NCBI GenBank assembly: GCA_039796775.1
Contig: JBDKJD010000006.1
Span: 1-52,028, forward strand
From: Candidatus Parcubacteria bacterium
Lineage (GTDB): Bacteria > Patescibacteriota > Minisyncoccia > Phycocordibacterales > UBA5272
Direction: 5' to 3'
Length of the DNA: 52,028 nt
The first letter of the stretch is position 1. Every line of letters starts with the position of its first letter. The notes beneath the pieces were generated by a model. It saw nothing but the letters and a program-made list of their open reading frames with translations. It was not told the origin of the DNA and did no database searches. A program made the position numbers and the translations under genes. Shown here piece after piece: positions 6,440 through 42,907 of the stretch.

Positions 6440-6618
6440 AAAAGTGTGATAGGTCTTTATAAATTGTGGTAGCAAAAAGCCCACCACATGGGTGAGGACT
6501 TTCGTCCTCCATACCCGTTTCCAGGTACGGCCTATCACAGCAAACCCCATATGATGGGTTCTTTACTGTGATAGGACTTTTCACCATGCCAGCTGATAAG
6601 TCAACTGGTTTAGGCTAC
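6440..6618 (-). ncRNA. Candidate multi-stem structured RNA leader upstream of the thermonuclease
   Basis: Two GAAA-tetraloop hairpins (loops 6500-6503 and 6518-6521), a perfect 10-bp stem 6531-6540/6566-6575, a hairpin at 6589-6608 with a G-U pair, and a tetraloop-receptor-like CCUAAA/CAUGG. Confidence 0.65.
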
Positions 6619-6664
6619 TTCAAATTGTTTTTAATACTCTTGTATTAATTACTTAATTATATCG

Positions 6665-6728
6665 CAAAAAGGTCCTTTTGCTAAGGCTTTGTTGCCAACA
6701 TAAAAAGGCTTAGCAAAACTATCTTTTT
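6665..6728. repeat. Imperfect inverted repeat just upstream of the serine recombinase; candidate att/operator site
   Basis: TTTTGCTAAG (6676-6685) / CTTAGCAAAA (6709-6718) with an internal TGTTG-C-CAACA dyad. Confidence 0.5.
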
Positions 6729-6744
6729 CTGTCATTAATATAAT

Positions 6745-8064
6745 ATGGATAATATAGCAATCGGAAAAATAAATACAGAAGTTGTCTTTTCTGAAGAGAA
6801 AATTAAATATGTGCTGTATGCAAGAAAAAGCACAGAACAAGACGAGCTTCAAGCTCTCTCGATAGAATCACAGGTTAAAGAAATGCTACAAATTGCAGAT
6901 AAAGAGCATCTTCATATAGTTGATATTAAAAGAGAGGCACACAGTGCAAAAGCATCAGGACAAAGACCTGTATTTCAAGAAATATTACAAGAGTTAAGAG
7001 TCGGTAAATATACAGGAATACTAACTTGGGCACCAGATAGATTAAGTAGAAATGCAGGCGACCTAGGGTCGCTTGTTGATTTAATGGATCAAAAGAAATT
7101 AATACATATCCAAACGTATACCCAAAAGTTTACTAACGATCCGTCGCAAAAGTTTCTTCTTATGATTTTATGCTCTCAGGCAAAATTAGAGAATGATAAT
7201 AAGTCACTTAATGTTAAACGAGGTTTAAGAGCGAGGGTTGAAATGGGATTATGGCCATGTCGTCCACCAACAGGATATCTCTCAACAAAAAGAACTGATA
7301 AAAAATGTGTTGCTGTTCCAGATCCTGAACGAGCAGAAATAATAAAACAAGTATTTCAAAAAATTGGTAATGATGGTTGGACAGGAATGAAGACATTTAA
7401 ATGGTTGACAGAAGAGATTAAATTCAAAACTGAATTTAATAAACCACTAAGCATGGGTAACTTTTACAGACTTATTGATAACCATTTCTATTACGGCATA
7501 TTTGAGTTTCCAAAAGATAGTGGCCAGTGGTACAAAGGAATACATGAACCTATTATTTCTAAAGAGTTATTTGATTTAACACAGAAAAATATTAAAGATC
7601 ATCTTCTCGAACCAAAATATGCACAAAAAGAATTCGCTTTTACTAGAATGTTTATTTGTGGTGAATGTGGATCAGGCATAACAGCAGATGAAAAGTTTAA
7701 GAAACAGAAGAATGGAAATACTCATAGGTATGTATATTACAAATGCACAAGAACAAAAAATAGAAACTGTAATTCAAAATATTTCAACGAAGAAGATCTT
7801 ATTAATCAACTTCAATCCCTGGCTGATAATCTAGATTTAAATAAAATATCGATAAAGGAGAAAATTACCTTTGAGGTTAAAAGATTTAAAAAGTTTCACA
7901 GTCGACTTCTTGGTAAAACATCACCTATTACTGTGGGTGAAATTGATTTAAGAGATTATGTTAAGTTTATTTTAGCGGAGGGAGAAATTGAAGAAAAAAG
8001 AGAAATATTAAGTTGTTTTAAGAATAAAATTTTAGTAAAAGAGAAGGAATTAAGGCTAGCATAA
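6745..8064 (+). CDS. Large serine recombinase (integrase type)
   Basis: YARKST catalytic Ser motif; DRLSRN; recombinase domain ending HEPIIS; zinc ribbon CGECG...YYKC. Confidence 0.95.
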   Translation: MDNIAIGKINTEVVFSEEKIKYVLYARKSTEQDELQALSIESQVKEMLQIADKEHLHIVDIKREAHSAKASGQRPVFQEILQELRVGKYTGILTWAPDRLSRNAGDLGSLVDLMDQKKLIHIQTYTQKFTNDPSQKFLLMILCSQAKLENDNKSLNVKRGLRARVEMGLWPCRPPTGYLSTKRTDKKCVAVPDPERAEIIKQVFQKIGNDGWTGMKTFKWLTEEIKFKTEFNKPLSMGNFYRLIDNHFYYGIFEFPKDSGQWYKGIHEPIISKELFDLTQKNIKDHLLEPKYAQKEFAFTRMFICGECGSGITADEKFKKQKNGNTHRYVYYKCTRTKNRNCNSKYFNEEDLINQLQSLADNLDLNKISIKEKITFEVKRFKKFHSRLLGKTSPITVGEIDLRDYVKFILAEGEIEEKREILSCFKNKILVKEKELRLA

Positions 8065-13928: not shown

Positions 13929-13960
13929 GCTGGTATCCTTCTCGTGATACCTGCTGAAGG

Positions 13961-14032
13961 TGACCTCACGGGGAATCGAACCCCGCTTCCAGGCATGAGA
14001 AGCCTGTGTCCTAACCGATAGACGATGAGGCC
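13961..14032 (-). tRNA. tRNA-Glu (anticodon CTC)
   Basis: Cloverleaf GGCCTCA...TGAGGTC-A; anticodon arm CAGGC-TTCTCAT-GCCTG; T-loop TTCGATT; followed by CCT rather than CCA. Confidence 0.95.
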
Positions 14033-36915: not shown

Positions 36916-38298
36916 ATGTATTCCCTTTCTATCGACTACCTATTTAATCGTATTTATGATGTCCTGTTGTGGATTAAATACACATGGCTTTTTGTTATTA
37001 AAAGGGAAGATGTTGATGCGTACATAAAAAGTGTTGAAGCCAATGATTGGGACGGGTTGCGGGATAGAGGGTGGTTAACCGAAACGACAAGCACTCTCCC
37101 TGTGCCTGAAGCTGAGGTTCATGTATCGCTATGGCAAAGATTACAAGAAGCTGTTGGATTAAAAGTCAGAGACTCTGATCGTGATGGCGCTCCAGATGTT
37201 GTTGACCCTAGACCATATGATAGCGACAATCTCTCTAAGAGCGATATTAAGGAGCGATACGAAGAGTATTATTCTTTTTCTGATCATGTGAGAGATATAT
37301 TTGGTATTTCACCAAAAGATTCTGACAAAGATAGTGTGCCGGATAGTTATGAGAAGGTAATCAACACTGACAAGGATAATCCAGACACTGACAATGATGG
37401 ACTATTAGATGGTCAAGAATTAGCCAAAGGGACTGATCCTCTTAACCCGGATACTGACGGAGATCTTGTGTTGGATGGGCGAGACGAAGATCCGCTTAAT
37501 AGCTTCGTCTCTTCTCTCGGTGAAGATTCTGATAAGGATGGAGTGAGTGACAAGATGGAAAGCTTTTTGGGATCTGACAGTACTAAGATAGATACAGATG
37601 GTGATGGTATTACAGATGGTATGGATACGTATATTCTTGATCCAGAAAATATCTCAAATGGCCTCCTGGGCAAAATAGCAGAGAATGGTAATGATCTTTT
37701 GTTCGCAATTCAGAATCCAGTAATTCATTTCATGTCTAATGTTCTTGGATTGTTTATTATCGCTATTATGTGTTGTCTTGTGTATGCTTCGGTTAGATGG
37801 TTCTCTGTTTTCTTGGAAGGGCTTAATCATTATGAACATCATTTTCATCATGATGACCATAGTCATTCTCCGCATCATGTTATTTCTCATACACAAGATG
37901 TGTCATCTCATCATGGTCATGCGATTGATAATCTTCCTGTTGGCGAAGTAAAGAGTGTCGAGACATACTCTCTCGCAGAAGAGCAGAATAATCACCCTAA
38001 ATTTGCGATCATCGAAGGGTATATGAATAGTGAAACTGAAACGTTGTGGAGAATCGGAGTGATGGAAGCAGATAACTTACTCCACGAAGTGTTGAGAGAG
38101 AAAGGGTATCAAGGCGAGACATTAGGTGAGATGCTCAAAGCTGCAAGTTTTAGAACTATTGATTTAGCGTGGGATGCTCACAAGATAAGAAATAGAATAG
38201 CCCATGAAGGACTTGATTTTCAATTAACTGAACGAGAGGCAAAGCGCGCATTTGTTCTCTATGAATCAGTCTTTAGAGATTTGAAGGTGATTAGATAG
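36916..38298 (+). CDS. Membrane protein with thrombospondin type-3-like Ca-binding repeats, His-rich linker and C-terminal HEPN-like (RxxxxH) domain
   Basis: Multiple DxDxDG repeats; one internal TM helix; HHFHHDDHSHSPHH; AHKIRNRIAHEG. Confidence 0.7.
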   Translation: MYSLSIDYLFNRIYDVLLWIKYTWLFVIKREDVDAYIKSVEANDWDGLRDRGWLTETTSTLPVPEAEVHVSLWQRLQEAVGLKVRDSDRDGAPDVVDPRPYDSDNLSKSDIKERYEEYYSFSDHVRDIFGISPKDSDKDSVPDSYEKVINTDKDNPDTDNDGLLDGQELAKGTDPLNPDTDGDLVLDGRDEDPLNSFVSSLGEDSDKDGVSDKMESFLGSDSTKIDTDGDGITDGMDTYILDPENISNGLLGKIAENGNDLLFAIQNPVIHFMSNVLGLFIIAIMCCLVYASVRWFSVFLEGLNHYEHHFHHDDHSHSPHHVISHTQDVSSHHGHAIDNLPVGEVKSVETYSLAEEQNNHPKFAIIEGYMNSETETLWRIGVMEADNLLHEVLREKGYQGETLGEMLKAASFRTIDLAWDAHKIRNRIAHEGLDFQLTEREAKRAFVLYESVFRDLKVIR

Positions 38299-38344
38299 TA
38301 AGTGACTAGTCGCTAGTGATTAGCTGAGAGGTTCTTTTTACTCG

Positions 38345-38760
38345 TTGTGGGTGATCAGAAGATCGTACTGTGAACGTGCGATTAGTAAATCGTGCTGTGA
38401 AGTAGAGCAGGAATCGCCTCTCCTTCACTGTATTCAGTCGAGATCCAACATTTTCATAGTCGCTTCGCTCTTTGAAAATGTGGGCCTTCGGTTCGATTCC
38501 GTTCTTTGAGCCTGTACAAGAATACTATAAAAGCCACCGACTACGATGGCTTTTATAGTATTCTTGTTTGCGGACGATCAGAAGATAGTACTGTGAAGTA
38601 GAGCAGGAAGTTCGGTCACAAGACTACCTCCTCACTTCGTTCGTCAGAGATAGTCTCGCGACCCCTATTCGATTCCTGACGCACATGACGCAGGTCATGT
38701 GCTCCCAGTACAGACAAGTAAAAAGAAAAACCCTGATTACAGAGTTTTTCTTTTTACTTG
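38345..38760 (-). repeat. Tandem array of tRNA-3'-end-derived structured repeats downstream of tRNA-fMet (includes copy B at 38606-38703)
   Basis: Recurrent TTCCTGC/TCCGCAA tRNA-end mimics; hairpins 38714-38761 and 38516-38567; three copies of a ~22-nt motif at 38353, 38380 and 38576. Confidence 0.75.
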
Positions 38761-38831
38761 TTGCGGAGGCAGGAATCGAACCTACATTCCGAGGTTATGA
38801 GCCTCGTGAGTTACCTTTACTCTACTCCGCT
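38761..38831 (-). tRNA. tRNA-Met (CAT), probably initiator
   Basis: AGCGGAG/CTCCGCA-A with a 1:72 mismatch; anticodon arm CGAGG-CTCATAA-CCTCG; T-loop TTCGATT. Confidence 0.92.
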
Positions 38832-38938
38832 ATCTTTTATTTTTATTATTTGTACGATAACGTAATTATAATATCATGATTTTACAACTTTACAAAATCT
38901 ACTTATAAAAAAAGAACTAATGATATAATGCTACATAT

Positions 38939-39621
38939 ATGTCAAAACCTATACAAAAAGAGAAAGCTTTAATCTTAAGACGAAAAGGCTTAAGTGTAGG
39001 AGATATAGCTGCTAAGCTCAAAGTATCAAAAAGTACTGCCAGTACTTGGTGTAGCTCAATAAAACTTACGACAAAGCAAAGAGAAATTTTAAAAAATAAT
39101 ATGATAAAAGCAGGGTATGCTGGCAGACAGAAAGGTGCTGATGCTAATCGTAAGAAAAAAGAAATTCAGATTTTAGAAGCAAAAGAGCAGGCTTCAAAAA
39201 GTATTAAAAATTATCAAAAAGAGACTTCTTAATGCTCTTCTTTGGTTTATATTGGGGAGAAGGTAGTAAAAATTCAGAGAGAAAATTTGTATTCACTAAT
39301 AGTGATCCGTATGCAATCCTCTGTACCATTAAAGCGTTAGAACTTTTTGGTATTAGTAAAGAGTCGGTGGTTGCCGCTGTCTATATTAACAGTAGTCATA
39401 AATATAGGGTCACGATTGTTGAAAAGTTTTGGCAAAATTTATTACAGATAGATAAAGCTCAGCTGAGAAAAACTATTTTTGTAAATACTAAAACTAAAAA
39501 AGTGTACTCTAACACTAATGAGTATTATGGAGTTTTGAGATTGATGATTAAAAAAAGTTCTAAGACAAAAGATTTCATGATGGCAGGGATTGAGCATATT
39601 AGATTGAATTTGAATAAATGA
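38939..39621 (+). pseudogene. HTH plus LAGLIDADG-like protein split by a single-base frameshift (or a homopolymer sequencing error)
   Basis: N-terminal HTH (GLSVGDIAAKLKVSKSTASTW). One extra A in the A5 run at 39206-39210 fuses the ORFs as IKKLSKRDFLMLFFGLYWGEGSK...FTNSDP. Confidence 0.7.
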
Positions 39622-39656
39622 CCATTTTATGGTATAAAATGTTGTACATTACATAT

Positions 39657-39730
39657 GTCGGCGTAGCTCAGTTGGTTAGAGCGCATCACTCATAAAGATG
39701 AGGTCGGTGGATCATTCCCACCCGCCGACA
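39657..39730 (+). tRNA. tRNA with CAT anticodon (elongator Met or Ile2) with atypical T-loop
   Basis: Acceptor GTCGGCG/CGCCGAC-A; canonical D-arm; CTCATAA loop; T-arm GGTGG-ATCATTC-CCACC. Confidence 0.85.
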
Positions 39731-39813
39731 CAAGTTAAGTAAACCTATCTTCACTTAGAAGGTTAATAGCACGAAGGAATTTGGATATATAAACCAGAAG
39801 GGTATACTTTCCC

Positions 39814-39872
39814 TCTAATGTCTAATGTCTAATGTCTAATGTCTAATGTCTAATGTCTAATGTCTAATGTCT
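39814..39872. repeat. Heptamer tandem repeat (TCTAATG)x8
   Basis: Eight perfect copies plus TCT, ending 4 nt from the stop codon of the convergent gene. Confidence 0.95.
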
Positions 39873-39876
39873 GCTC

Positions 39877-41049
39877 CTACGCCTCCCACTTTTTGTTCAC
39901 CAGTTCTTTTTCTTTTTTGGCTATATCTACAAAGCCTCTATACATACCAGATTCTTTTAGAATTTTTCTAGCGTAACTATGATATGGATAAAGAGGACAA
40001 AGATTGGAACCTTTTTCTCGTAACGTTACAGGGACATGAATAGTTTTTTCTTTGTTCTTTTCATTCATGAAGTAAAGAGAAAACGAAACGGAAGTGAGGA
40101 GTGCGAGCTCTGCAGTCTTTTCTATGCCAAGTTCTTTATAAAAAGAGAAGAGGGGGTGGAGCCCTGATGACTCTTGTTGAGTAGGGAGATTGAGTTTAAC
40201 TATCTTCTTGGCTTTGTCTCCACCTAGTGTGAGAGTGACACCTTTTATTTTCCATGACATAAGCGGTGTGCCGCTTTTATGAGAACCAAAGTCAAAAGAA
40301 TCTTTTTTGAAGTTACTCATGTCATAGGACTCTTCTCTTTCTAAGTAACCATCATTACAGACGACACGGAGAAAGGTATCTAAGAGAACTATCTTATCAT
40401 ACTTACTACCGCTAAAAGATATCAATGCTTCGGTCGTATCTTTTATATATACAACACGTAGGAATTCTTCTTTTTTGCTTCCGATTTCTCTTGCTTTGAG
40501 GGAGTAGTATAGCGTGTTACCAAGTATTGTGTGGGTCGGATCATATTCTTTCCCAAGGCTTTCTTTATCTAGAATGCGTTTATATTCTTTGGTGAGTTCT
40601 GTTATCTTAAATTCAGCATCTTTGAGATCGAGGTCCTTTGTCTCATAGAGCATATAGCTAGGCTTCACAAAAAAAGAATGTAGGAATAAAACATCCTCGA
40701 ATATATCGTCTTTATGAAAGAGATAATAATAGAGAGCTGTATCTTCTTTTGATGTGCAGTCAATCGTTGTTACAGAAGATACATTTCTTTTTTTAAGAAC
40801 GAGAGGGAAGAGATACTCTCCATGCACGGAAGCGGGTGTGGCTATGGTTGTGAGTTCTTCATCTATTTCAATTTTTTGTTCTGGGGAGAGTGAGTCATAA
40901 AAATCTTTGAGGACATTAGTAACTGTTTTTCTTGAAGATTGTTCGGTGAGCTCAAAGAGGGCGATGATGTCATGTCTTTTGTAGAGCTCAGTTATGAGAG
41001 GATAAGCGTGTATTTTTTTGAAAAATGCTTTTGGTTTGAAAGTTGCCAT
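39877..41049 (-). CDS. Hypothetical cytoplasmic protein, about 390 aa
   Basis: Long ORF with ordinary composition; start placed at ATG 41049 (MATFKPKAF); no motif recognised. Confidence 0.75.
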   Translation of the reverse strand: MATFKPKAFFKKIHAYPLITELYKRHDIIALFELTEQSSRKTVTNVLKDFYDSLSPEQKIEIDEELTTIATPASVHGEYLFPLVLKKRNVSSVTTIDCTSKEDTALYYYLFHKDDIFEDVLFLHSFFVKPSYMLYETKDLDLKDAEFKITELTKEYKRILDKESLGKEYDPTHTILGNTLYYSLKAREIGSKKEEFLRVVYIKDTTEALISFSGSKYDKIVLLDTFLRVVCNDGYLEREESYDMSNFKKDSFDFGSHKSGTPLMSWKIKGVTLTLGGDKAKKIVKLNLPTQQESSGLHPLFSFYKELGIEKTAELALLTSVSFSLYFMNEKNKEKTIHVPVTLREKGSNLCPLYPYHSYARKILKESGMYRGFVDIAKKEKELVNKKWEA

Positions 41050-41242
41050 AGTATAGAGAGCGGTGTGTGAAGAGTGAATTTTATACAATAATTCAGATAG
41101 TGTAGCACATGAAGATAAGTGTTTATGATAAATCTGTAAGATAATAGTTTAAACAAGAGGCCTTTAATTTTTTTAAAAATAATGTATAATAGGGGGACAA
41201 AACTTTTTTTCAAAGAAAGAAGAAAGTTTTTGAAACATATAC

Positions 41243-41316
41243 GCAGCGGTAGCTCAGCTGGTTAGAGCACTGCCCTGTCACGGCAGGGGTCGTGGGTTCG
41301 AGTCCCATTCGCTGCG
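41243..41316 (+). tRNA. tRNA-Asp (anticodon GTC)
   Basis: GCAGCGG/TCGCTGC-G; anticodon arm CTGCC-CTGTCAC-GGCAG; T-loop TTCGAGT. Confidence 0.95.
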
Positions 41317-41319
41317 CAA

Positions 41320-41475
41320 AAACAAAAATCTCAGGCTTCTTGCCTGAGATTTTTGTTTATCTTGCAAAGCGAACCAAGAAGTCTCACCTGCGTGAGACTT
41401 CGGGACGAGAATAGGGGTCGCGAATCTACTTCGAGGAACAAAGTGACGAGGTAGATTTGTGACCAAATCCCATCG
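41320..41475 (+). repeat. Post-tRNA hairpin plus tRNA-associated structured repeat, copy C
   Basis: 17-bp stem with TTCTT loop (41320-41358); GAAGTCTCAC-CTGC-GTGAGACTTC; GAATAGGGGTCGC...GTGACC. Confidence 0.8.
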
Positions 41476-41498
41476 ACGTCTATGGTATAATTTTATTT

Positions 41499-41747
41499 AT
41501 GACAAAGGGATATATTCCACAAATGCCACAAAAATTTCCAATAAAGGGAGAAAAGTATCGTCACTATAAAGGAGACTTATATGAAGTTGTTGGTCTTGCA
41601 ATACATTCAAATGATGATATCTGGATGGTTGTTTACAAACCTCTTTATGAAAATGCCGATGCTGAAATGTTCACTAGACCGCTCGATGAATGGTTTTCTG
41701 AAATTGAATGGAATGGGAATTTGGTGCAACGATTTAGTTTAATATAG
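41499..41747 (+). CDS. DUF1653-family protein
   Basis: YRHYKG..YEV...A.HS.....VVYKPLY.....FTRP...; own TGGTATAAT element just upstream. Confidence 0.88.
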   Translation: MTKGYIPQMPQKFPIKGEKYRHYKGDLYEVVGLAIHSNDDIWMVVYKPLYENADAEMFTRPLDEWFSEIEWNGNLVQRFSLI

Positions 41748-41792
41748 TGTGACTATAAATTAACCTAGTTCTCACTTCATCCACTAGAGTGT

Positions 41793-41885
41793 GCAAAAAC
41801 AAAAATCTCAGGCAAGAAGCCTGAGATTTTTGTTTTCGCGCGGCGAATAGTAAAAGATTAAACGTCTTTTACGTGGGACTCGAAC
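41793..41885. repeat. Second copy of the post-tRNA-Asp hairpin plus an antisense tRNA-Asp 3' end interrupted by a hairpin
   Basis: 41797-41835 is the exact reverse complement of 41320-41358. GCGCGGCGAAT[insert]GGGACTCGAAC matches the reverse complement of the tRNA-Asp T-arm/acceptor with one mismatch. Confidence 0.85.
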
Positions 41886-42145
41886 GAAAAAGCGGTTTAC
41901 GAAACAATAAAAAGAAAAGTTAGCCCCTTTTTCTTTTTATTCACACATACCCCGAGCATTAGCCCGTGGGAACTTTGTAGGAAAGTTTGAAAACCTCGGT
42001 TTTCAATAATCCTTGCGGAGCTTTCCTAGATGCCCCCACCGATACGAATGGAATGAGTGAGGGATGGTCTATGACCTGGGGAGCTTCATTATTAGATATA
42101 ATAAAGTAACCATAAGAGCACAGTCTTTGTGCTACTCTTATATAC

Positions 42146-42907
42146 ATGCTCACCACTAAAGACCTTTTTATTTTTGATGTCGATGACACACTTGCTCGGA
42201 GTAAGTGTGAGATGGAAGATGAGATGAGTGAAGTATTCTCTCGACTGTTACCTCACGCACATGTCGCAATTATAAGCGGTGGTAAATGGGAGATTCTAAA
42301 GAAGAATGTAATAGAGAGAATAACAGAAGAAGGGAAGTCTCACATGCATAAGCTGCACGTCCTCCCGACATGTGGGGCGAGATATTTTAAATACGAGGAT
42401 AATGAATGGAAAGAAAAGCATGCTTATCTCATCAAAGAAGAAGATAAGTCAAGAATACGCGAGCTGCTTCTTCTGGCTTCGGAAGGGGAATATGAGAGAA
42501 AAGAAGTATTCGGAGAATTGGTAGAAGATAGGAAGACTATGATGTCATTTTCTATGTTCGGACAGTTTGCACCTATTCATATTAAAGAACCAGCCGACAG
42601 AGATCATTCTCTTAGAAGAAAAATGATAGCCAAGATAGCGCATCTTTTGCCTGATTATGAGTTACGAACAGGCGGAGCTACAACAATTGATGTGACCCAA
42701 AAAGGTATGGATAAAGGATTCGGTATACGAGCGATAAGCCAAGCACTTAACATTCCTTTTGAAAAAATAATTTTTATAGGAGACGCAACACATGAAGGAG
42801 GGAATGACTATCCGGCAGTTGCGCTTGGGCTCGATGTGATTACTGTGAAGAATCCACAAGATACGTTGAAGCGTATAAATACATGGCTTCTAAACAAAAA
42901 TTCTTGA
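42146..42907 (+). CDS. HAD-IIB family hydrolase (eukaryotic-type phosphomannomutase-like)
   Basis: FDVDDTL; ISGG; GGATTIDVT..GMDK; FIGD....GGND. Confidence 0.88.
   Translation: MLTTKDLFIFDVDDTLARSKCEMEDEMSEVFSRLLPHAHVAIISGGKWEILKKNVIERITEEGKSHMHKLHVLPTCGARYFKYEDNEWKEKHAYLIKEEDKSRIRELLLLASEGEYERKEVFGELVEDRKTMMSFSMFGQFAPIHIKEPADRDHSLRRKMIAKIAHLLPDYELRTGGATTIDVTQKGMDKGFGIRAISQALNIPFEKIIFIGDATHEGGNDYPAVALGLDVITVKNPQDTLKRINTWLLNKNS

Follow-up and report, generated by a model that had tools for sequence, protein, structure and literature searches.

A gene-swapping hotspot behind a tRNA-Asp gene of a Candidatus Parcubacteria bacterium, built from an undescribed family of tRNA-tail modules

Analysis of a 52,028-nt stretch of DNA from a Candidatus Parcubacteria bacterium (assembly GCA_039796775.1, contig JBDKJD010000006.1, positions 1 to 52,028; hereafter the window) revealed that the region directly behind its tRNA-Asp gene is a gene-swapping hotspot, at which related genomes carry quite different genes. 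In the window this place is occupied by a single small gene of the DUF1653 family, and the array around it is built from an undescribed family of structured modules that contain antisense and sense copies of the 3' end of a tRNA. The sequence comparisons show the DUF1653 unit to be one lodged cassette of an array that is anchored at tRNA-Asp and made of such tRNA-tail modules; on balance, we lean towards the view that this array arose by accretion. Full-text literature searches on the candidate phyla radiation, Saccharibacteria and Patescibacteria found no published description of these modules or arrays. Below, the genome of the window (770 kb, 95.9% complete) is referred to as G000 and its contigs by C-numbers; the other G-numbers denote relatives.

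The features of the tRNA-Asp locus follow one another in the order tRNA-Asp, hairpin 1, module A, promoter and DUF1653 gene, cassette-end motif, hairpin 2, module B and the dispersed repeat rep155 (Table 1). The original prediction had placed the DUF1653 gene between two hairpins with the same 17-bp arms and the loops TTCTT and AAGAA, and the sequence confirmed this arrangement. A search for the arm-loop-arm pattern gave exactly two matches in the window, whereas none of 100 dinucleotide shuffles gave two or more, and BLAST detected no third full copy of the hairpin in the 770-kb genome. The fold of hairpin 1 had an energy of -35.9 kcal/mol (z -8.6); by eye, the hairpin stem reads CTCAGGC/GCCTGAG followed by ATTTTTGTTT, with an A-run on the 5' side. 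Hairpin 1 resembles a bidirectional terminator. The terminator scan listed neither hairpin, probably because the T-run itself is paired in the longer stem.

Hairpin 1, together with the tRNA end and the downstream antisense stretch, forms a longer imperfect palindrome, and the arms of hairpin 2 reach 21 nt (41793-41839). The repeat finder reported positions 41307-41358 and 41797-41848 as an inverted repeat of 52 nt (96%) and, in direct orientation, as a repeat of 46 nt (87%), the inverted relation being the stronger of the two; the final 13 nt of tRNA-Asp together with hairpin 1 reappear, as their reverse complement, in hairpin 2 and the 13 nt after it. The flipped loop had been proposed to be a footprint of strand exchange or template switching. 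On its own, however, the flip is no evidence of strand exchange, because a perfect-arm hairpin differs from its reverse complement in the loop only, so that any inverted hairpin of this kind shows the flip, and the inverted repeat here runs 13 nt into the tRNA end. As had been described, each of the two hairpins is followed by the tRNA-Asp end in antisense orientation, interrupted by a small hairpin; the copy after hairpin 1 is decayed. To the left of the cargo lies a 15-nt sense copy of the tRNA end in the variant of the relatives, and to the right lies a diverged pseudo-end motif; no second ungapped copy of the present tRNA-Asp end was found in the window at up to three mismatches.

The extended -10 of the cassette gene (TGGTATAAT, 41483-41491), which had also been noted beforehand, was recognized by eye and is absent from the list of the consensus promoter scan, which requires a -35. 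Because it ends 7 nt before the ATG, the DUF1653 mRNA is probably leaderless. Identification of the unit as a miniature inverted-repeat transposable element or an insertion sequence was rejected: the cassette occurs once, and its flanks are tRNA-specific rather than element-specific ends.

We inventoried the 240 nt 3' of each of the 36 tRNAs of G000. About half of them are followed by the same layout: a hairpin, an antisense acceptor copy, a small hairpin (loop often CCTGCG), an antisense T-arm, a conserved core (AATAGGGGTCGCGA ... TTGTGACC) and a terminal sense copy of the last 10-19 nt of the tRNA. Behind many modules stands a second terminator-like hairpin. Local alignment within the 450 nt downstream revealed copies of the tRNA's own 3' end scoring at least 10 in inverted orientation for 16 of the 36 tRNAs and in direct orientation for 15, with shuffled-query maxima of 7-11.

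An alignment of 25 modules (12 from G000 and 13 from relatives) supported three helices, in which 92.2% of 715 cells were paired, compared with 77.8% after shuffling and 35-49% in slid controls. Double-sided changes occurred in 22 of 29 pairs, and none of 500 shuffles matched the observed values. The acceptor helix is often decayed, and the T-arm helix alone is regularly kept. Pairing was also strand-biased (92.2% on the tRNA-sense strand vs 84.5% on the complement), and G-U cells exceeded A-C cells (71 vs 16); since the tRNA strand pairs better and G-U is the more frequent of the two, the alignment points to a module that folds as RNA or as one DNA strand, in the sense of the tRNA.

A covariance model built from this alignment (R1) gave 19 matches in G000, 13 of them above 88 bits. 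Fourteen of the 19 lay no more than 300 nt behind a same-strand tRNA, one lay at a contig start with a tRNA-Trp end and four lay farther off; the modules begin 15-44 nt 3' of the tRNA and are always on the tRNA strand. In a class-wide scan of 151 genomes from 123 genera, in which a match was defined by an E-value of 1e-5 or better and stricter filters, R1 matched at 1e-5 or better in 23 genomes and 19 genera. Module A (91.5 bits) shows the features of the family; truncated module B has the 5' features only and gave no R1 match. It represents a longer type, termed B, which also occurs in the tails of the two tRNA-Gly genes on C2 and in the tRNA-Asp tails of G019 and G011. The "empty array" that had been described at tRNA-fMet likewise belongs to this family, the structure behind tRNA-Met being a module array without cargo; beyond its module lie another hairpin (38516-38567) and a repeat of the module end.

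No Rfam 15 family was found for the modules, either in the whole window at gathering scores or in positions 38000-42300 at E-values up to 5. Microrna-type Rfam matches to the hairpins were spurious, and a hammerhead or C/D-box reading of the module apical loop was rejected by eye, the required helices being absent. Seven tRNAs of G000 have an encoded CCA, and of these only tRNA-Cys has a module; most CCA-less tRNAs (..GCAC ends) have one.

The tRNA-Asp tails of 16 relatives were read directly. The T-loop of tRNA-Asp reads TTCGAGT only in G000 and TTCAAAT in all 16 relatives, and the 3' end reads TTCGAGTCCCATTCGC in G000 and TTCAAATCCCATCGAC in the relatives. This three-base T-loop difference (41296-41317) is mirrored in the antisense T-arm of module B (41873-41885) and not in module A, the sense copy of which (CAAATCCCATCGACG) matches the tRNA-Asp type of the relatives. 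In 14 of the 16 relatives the tail has a hairpin with a single module behind it (A or B) or a pair of modules in either order, whereas in G022 and G023 it has a terminator-like hairpin only. Both kinds of copy, antisense and sense, carry the acceptor variant of the genome in which they lie, e.g., CAGCG vs CAGTG.

The surroundings of tRNA-Asp in relatives (28 fetched loci covering 20 other tRNA-Asp sites) were searched by tblastn, and DUF1653 was found at none of them. The gene was located in five relatives, and in four of these it occupies a different locus, which is syntenic and has neither a tRNA nor a module in its vicinity. At the corresponding place in G000 (C9:18400-19280) the gene is absent, and a GC-rich insert lies between direct repeats of ~55 nt. 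The DUF1653 protein of the window is 69% identical to its nearest orthologues. Judged by sequence comparison, DUF1653 is lost from its usual place and stands at tRNA-Asp only in this genome, because it is absent both from the syntenic locus here and from the other tRNA-Asp loci. Gene content behind tRNA-Asp varies among relatives, as had been expected: DUF1653 is not fixed at this site (0 of 28 loci), and different, repeat-bounded cargo is present elsewhere.

The cassette-end motif (TTCTCACTTCATCCACTAGAGTG followed by YGCA and a hairpin) was searched for in a family sample of 96 genomes and in a scan of metagenome contigs, with the reversed pattern as a control. The genomes gave 12 matches in eight of the 96, compared with 0 for the control. 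Ten of the 12 have a hairpin on the 3' side and lie behind tRNA-Asp, often two per array (G000, G015, G019, G030, G032 and G103); the matches in G067 and G105, with three mismatches each and no hairpin or tRNA nearby, were judged to be due to chance. One metagenome contig carries an array with two motif-hairpin junctions behind tRNA-Asp, giving a total of 12 junctions, and G029 has a version of the motif with four mismatches.

The junction at the cassette end is precise and conserved: it comprises the 23-nt motif and a perfect palindrome of 17-21 bp, and similarity 5' of the motif ends within ~7 nt. In the predicted fold, which took in hairpin 2 and the sequence after it, the antisense T-arm of module B is the pairing partner of AGUUCUCAC, the 5' part of the motif, and the antisense acceptor is that of GUGUGC, the 3' part of the motif. 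Because its ends pair in this way, the motif resembles a sense copy of the tRNA-Asp 3' end that has diverged and gained an insertion at its centre. Every junction combines a tRNA-like end, a palindrome and an antisense copy, and each cargo gene would thus lie between two tRNA-end-like direct repeats, namely the sense copy of the previous module and the pseudo-end motif. A box at the left end (TTTTTCTTATGATGGGTTTTAGGGA, up to three mismatches) was found in G032 only; this search was too strict, as G019 and G015 differ by an indel or more mismatches.

The cargo inventory comprised 18 open reading frames (ORFs) from seven arrays (six genus genomes and the metagenome contig). Motif-ended or array-lodged genes encode DUF1653, a GDSL lipase, a deaminase-like protein, a SAM methyltransferase, YecM (twice), a NUDIX protein, a LigT-like phosphoesterase, an alcohol dehydrogenase and several proteins of no known family. 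All-vs-all BLAST of the 18 proteins revealed 17 unrelated kinds and one related pair, the YecM proteins of G019 and G103 (82%), and G000 has no homologues of nearly all of these proteins. Boxes of the -10 type just 5' of cassettes were also observed in G032, G019 and G001. In G019, five cargo ORFs of this kind come before the orthologue of the HAD-like gene of the window, so the variable stretch has conserved flanks.

Larger islands with the same ends were also found. Behind tRNA-Tyr, a 7.9-kb island (C8:30500-40300) is flanked by 177-nt, 97% direct repeats, each consisting of the last 15 nt of the tRNA, a hairpin and a module. Its cargo comprises a type I restriction-modification system, a T5orf172 protein, a Hypoth_Ymh protein and a serine-recombinase remnant. 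The tRNA-Ser(TGA) end is likewise repeated in a module 8.4 kb downstream of that tRNA, and a serine recombinase gene separates the two.

Table 1. Features of the tRNA-Asp locus and related elements (positions in the window unless a contig of G000 is given)
Feature	Position	Strand	Evidence and remarks
tRNA-Asp(GTC), anchor	41243-41317	+	ARAGORN; Rfam tRNA 66.6 bits; no encoded CCA
Hairpin 1	41320-41358	.	17-bp arms, 100% complementary, loop TTCTT; A-run 5', T-run 3'
Module A, complete but decayed	41359-41484	+	R1 91.5 bits, E 4.8e-25; alignment, covariation, fold
Module A, antisense acceptor	41362-41373		10/12 matches to tRNA-Asp
Module A, small hairpin	41378-41401		Loop of CCTGCG type
Module A, antisense T-arm	41402-41411		8/10 matches
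Module A, core helix	41416-41429 / 41451-41464		
Module A, sense copy of tRNA-Asp end	41464-41478	+	CAAATCCCATCGACG, relatives' variant
Extended -10 of cassette gene	41483-41491	+	TGGTATAAT; by eye; ends 7 nt 5' of ATG
DUF1653 gene, cargo	41499-41747	+	ORF, 82 aa; Pfam PF07866 E 5e-21; no NCBIfam match
Cassette-end motif, then TGCA	41769-41796	+	TTCTCACTTCATCCACTAGAGTG (23 nt, 41769-41791)
Hairpin 2	41797-41835	.	Arms as in hairpin 1, loop AAGAA; centre of second palindrome
Module B, truncated	41836-41933	+	BLAST to B-type tails
Module B, antisense acceptor	41837-41848		10/12 matches
Module B, small hairpin	41850-41872		
Module B, antisense T-arm	41873-41885		GTGGGACTCGAAC; 12/13; complement of this tRNA's T-loop and T-stem
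Module B, extra stem	41886-41933		First half of B-type, with its hairpin; remainder missing
Dispersed repeat rep155	41934-42090	+	Substitutes rest of module B; aligned left edge ~7 nt earlier (41927)
Other rep155 copies	C4:4021-4176; C2:132337-132489; C1:110549-110700	-; +; -	
Right flank, conserved: HAD/phosphomannomutase-like gene	42146-42907	+	Pfam
Left flank, conserved: 403-aa ORF, no clear family	39877-41088	-	Adjoins tRNA-Asp in many relatives too
Module behind tRNA-Met (38760-38831, -)	38592-38722	-	R1 94.2 bits

The repeat rep155 is ~150 nt long and has four copies in G000, which are 92-96% alike and have sharp ends; it had no Rfam match (38000-42300, E-values up to 5), and many copies are present in G002 and G010. 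In the neighbourhood of the locus, a perfect tandem repeat of the 7-mer TCTAATG (~8 copies, 39814-39869) lies behind the plus-strand tRNA-Met, and the tRNA-Asp array of G032 contains a comparable 7-mer run of the CAGTGCTT type. A 129-aa ORF without a Pfam match (39232-39621) lies between the two divergent tRNA-Met genes.

In the accretion array that we favour, each unit reads, on the tRNA strand, as a real or pseudo tRNA 3' end, an A/T-flanked palindrome, a split antisense acceptor/T-arm, a core and a fresh sense copy. The fresh sense copy recreates the starting junction, and because it does so, units and genes can stack; single genes with their own promoters lodge between the sense copy of one unit and the pseudo-tRNA end of the next. 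As for the order of events, we infer a first state in which module B, with its mirror of this genome's own T-loop variant, abutted the tRNA as one long palindrome, as B-type modules do in G019 and G011. Recombination at the boundary of tRNA end and hairpin would then have brought in a segment comprising module A, DUF1653 and the motif, so that a hairpin came to stand on either side of it. Hairpin 2 lies in the inverted half of the palindrome, which would account for the opposite loops. The segment probably came from a relative, since the sense copy of module A is of the relatives' tRNA-Asp type. Joining would have been carried out by a trans-acting site-specific enzyme rather than by plain homologous recombination.

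Searches for such an enzyme covered several families. In the whole genome, PF00589 identified one tyrosine recombinase gene, which lies on C2, outside the window, and encodes 318 aa; it scored 239.8 bits with XerD and 238.7 bits with XerC, vs 116.6 bits with the integron-integrase model TIGR02249 (cut-off 265). The statement that no integron integrase is present in the window was therefore correct, the sole tyrosine recombinase being Xer-like and located elsewhere, although the window does contain a serine recombinase (6745-8064, CcrB/XisF-like), one of four large serine recombinases in the genome. A LOOT RNA (RF03000, 95.9 bits) lies directly 5' of this gene on the opposite strand (region 6494-8064), and three large ORFs follow the gene up to tRNA-Glu (13959-14032, minus strand); this stretch is probably another island. 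No IS110-type DEDD recombinase was found in the genome. The single reverse transcriptase gene (C3:2679-3299, open frame of 358 aa) lies far from any array. On C1, the 3' end of rep155 abuts a serine-recombinase tail (residues ~343-440), which is an isolated case.

Several of our results weigh against the accretion reading. A recombinase that co-occurs with the repeat, as had been suggested, was sought without success, and the serine recombinase of the window could not be linked to the array: the 441-aa serine recombinase family is present in 38 of 53 genus genomes and does not track the motif, and G032 has arrays and no match, although its genome is just 89% complete. Upstream of eight recombinase tail fragments in relatives there was no module, tRNA or rep155, and these fragments start at varied residues (295-352). 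The 18 cargo ORFs of the seven arrays include no recombinase. YecM stands first in the array both times, so no cassette was found at two different sites. The left junctions are ragged, with 10 to 19 nt of the sense copy kept before the cargo, which is more easily reconciled with decay or illegitimate joining than with a fixed crossover. The strand-specific pairing, with its excess of G-U over A-C cells, may mean that the modules serve a job other than recombination. Contigs of the one run containing this DNA gave the assembled order only, and neither these contigs nor those of three runs with a small share of it gave joints or an alternative loop or cassette form; rare forms being invisible in contigs, this is uninformative either way. 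No RNA run was listed among those containing the stretch.

Some of these points would be expected if the modules were functional 3'-trailer RNAs co-transcribed with CCA-less tRNAs and the cassette were incidental, the main rival account, which we consider rather unlikely. The module ends would then pair into an acceptor/T-arm-like helix, open to cutting and finishing by tRNA-processing enzymes, the genes would have landed by homologous or illegitimate recombination after DNA uptake, and the hairpins would be ordinary bidirectional terminators. Such RNAs would suit the strong strand-specific covariation with conserved G-U pairs, the constant strand and spacing of the modules behind the tRNA, the single module among the seven CCA-encoding tRNAs and the second terminator-like hairpin after many modules, as well as the ragged left cargo junctions and the lack of a recombinase linked to the arrays. 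However, they leave unexplained why unrelated cargo shares a 23-nt end motif with a sharp upstream edge and why kilobase islands are flanked by module copies. Moreover, a strong hairpin with a T-run precedes the modules, making transcription into them putative, and truncated module B still mirrors the lineage-specific T-loop change. It is far less probable still that the locus arose by a one-off local inverted duplication, e.g., by template switching at the palindrome, with no wider meaning. The exact hairpin does occur only twice in the genome, both times at this locus, and its arms are 100% identical, suggesting a recent event, but the layout recurs behind about half of the genome's tRNAs and behind tRNA-Asp in 14 of 16 relatives, and the motif-hairpin junction is present in a further five genomes of the genus and in a metagenome contig. 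These recurrences contradict the possibility, raised with the original prediction, that the second hairpin is a one-off duplication.

Single-strand recombination, which is close to the original proposal, offers a further account. Integron cassettes are single genes with imperfect palindromic sites that keep structure over sequence, and their recombinase is encoded outside the cassettes; attC sites recombine as a folded single strand. In CTX-phage integration, a folded single strand mimics the host dif site for XerCD. By analogy, once the tRNA strand is single-stranded, a module would fold in such a way that its antisense and sense copies form a duplex image of the tRNA gene from the T-loop to the 3' end; a recombinase (the Xer-like enzyme or another) would take this for an attachment site and exchange one strand, and replication would resolve the product. 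Antisense and sense copies of a target in cis are hard to understand for a double-stranded site and natural for a folded one; the folding bias is strand-specific, and the arrays consist of single-gene cassettes without an integrase. In contrast, there is no IntI, the sole tyrosine recombinase is XerC/D (240 bits vs 117 with the integron model, cut-off 265), the acceptor helix is often decayed with only the T-arm helix regularly kept, the cassettes are self-promoted, and no circles or alternative joints were found in the contigs searched. We regard this mechanism as quite improbable. A broader proposal is that the module is the attachment site of a new cassette-capture system, in which a single-strand fold of DNA or RNA rebuilds the duplex tRNA image from the T-loop to the 3' end. 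A host enzyme would then insert promoter-bearing genes behind any tRNA with a matching tail module, each insertion would regenerate the site, and arrays would grow without a dedicated integrase in the array; this we consider unlikely.

Comparison with known systems revealed both shared and distinct properties. The arrays resemble integrons in their single-gene units, palindromic sites and lack of a recombinase in the cassettes. Unlike integrons, they have no IntI, attI or Pc, the cassettes are self-promoted, the array is anchored at a tRNA end, and the palindrome is terminator-like and flanked by tRNA-derived sequence. The description of an integron-like unit therefore holds for the repeat-bounded, variable single genes and fails for the integrase, for the promoters and for the junction, which consists of a pseudo-tRNA end and a palindrome. 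As in the CTX phage, a folded strand would rebuild a duplex chromosomal target and the sole tyrosine recombinase is Xer-like; unlike there, a tRNA end would take the place of dif as the target, with no involvement of phage genes. Classical tRNA-targeting integrative elements differ in that no integrase lies within the element here.

Tycheposons, a tRNA-anchored kind of integrative island and, with integrons, the nearest described systems, carry variable cargo directly behind a tRNA with partial tRNA flanks, and repeated integration displaces older material outwards, leaving degenerated remnants and scattered partial tRNAs (10.1101/2020.12.28.424599). The partial tRNAs are there described as plain direct repeats, and the elements as having their own integrase, mostly a tyrosine recombinase, and often replication genes (10.1101/2020.12.28.424599). 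The arrays are like tycheposons in the piling up of cargo behind a tRNA, in the flanking partial tRNA copies and in the outward displacement of older, degenerated material. They are unlike them in that the units are single genes of 0.5-1 kb without a recombinase, in that every junction adds an antisense tRNA copy and a covarying core, and in that a diverged pseudo-tRNA end closes the cassette.

The genomes of ultra-small bacteria, Saccharibacteria among them, are tiny, and how these organisms gain genes is, to our knowledge, little understood. A covarying, unannotated structured module trails about half of the tRNA genes of this genome and constitutes a new structural family of RNA or DNA to annotate. 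Such modules have single accessory genes and entire defence islands lodged between them. In sister species the cargo of the tRNA-Asp arrays differs almost entirely, with each gene ending in the same pseudo-tRNA-end site, and these findings offer a concrete way to test gene flux in such organisms. If joining is indeed site-specific and independent of a cassette-borne integrase, these arrays would represent a new kind of gene-capture platform.

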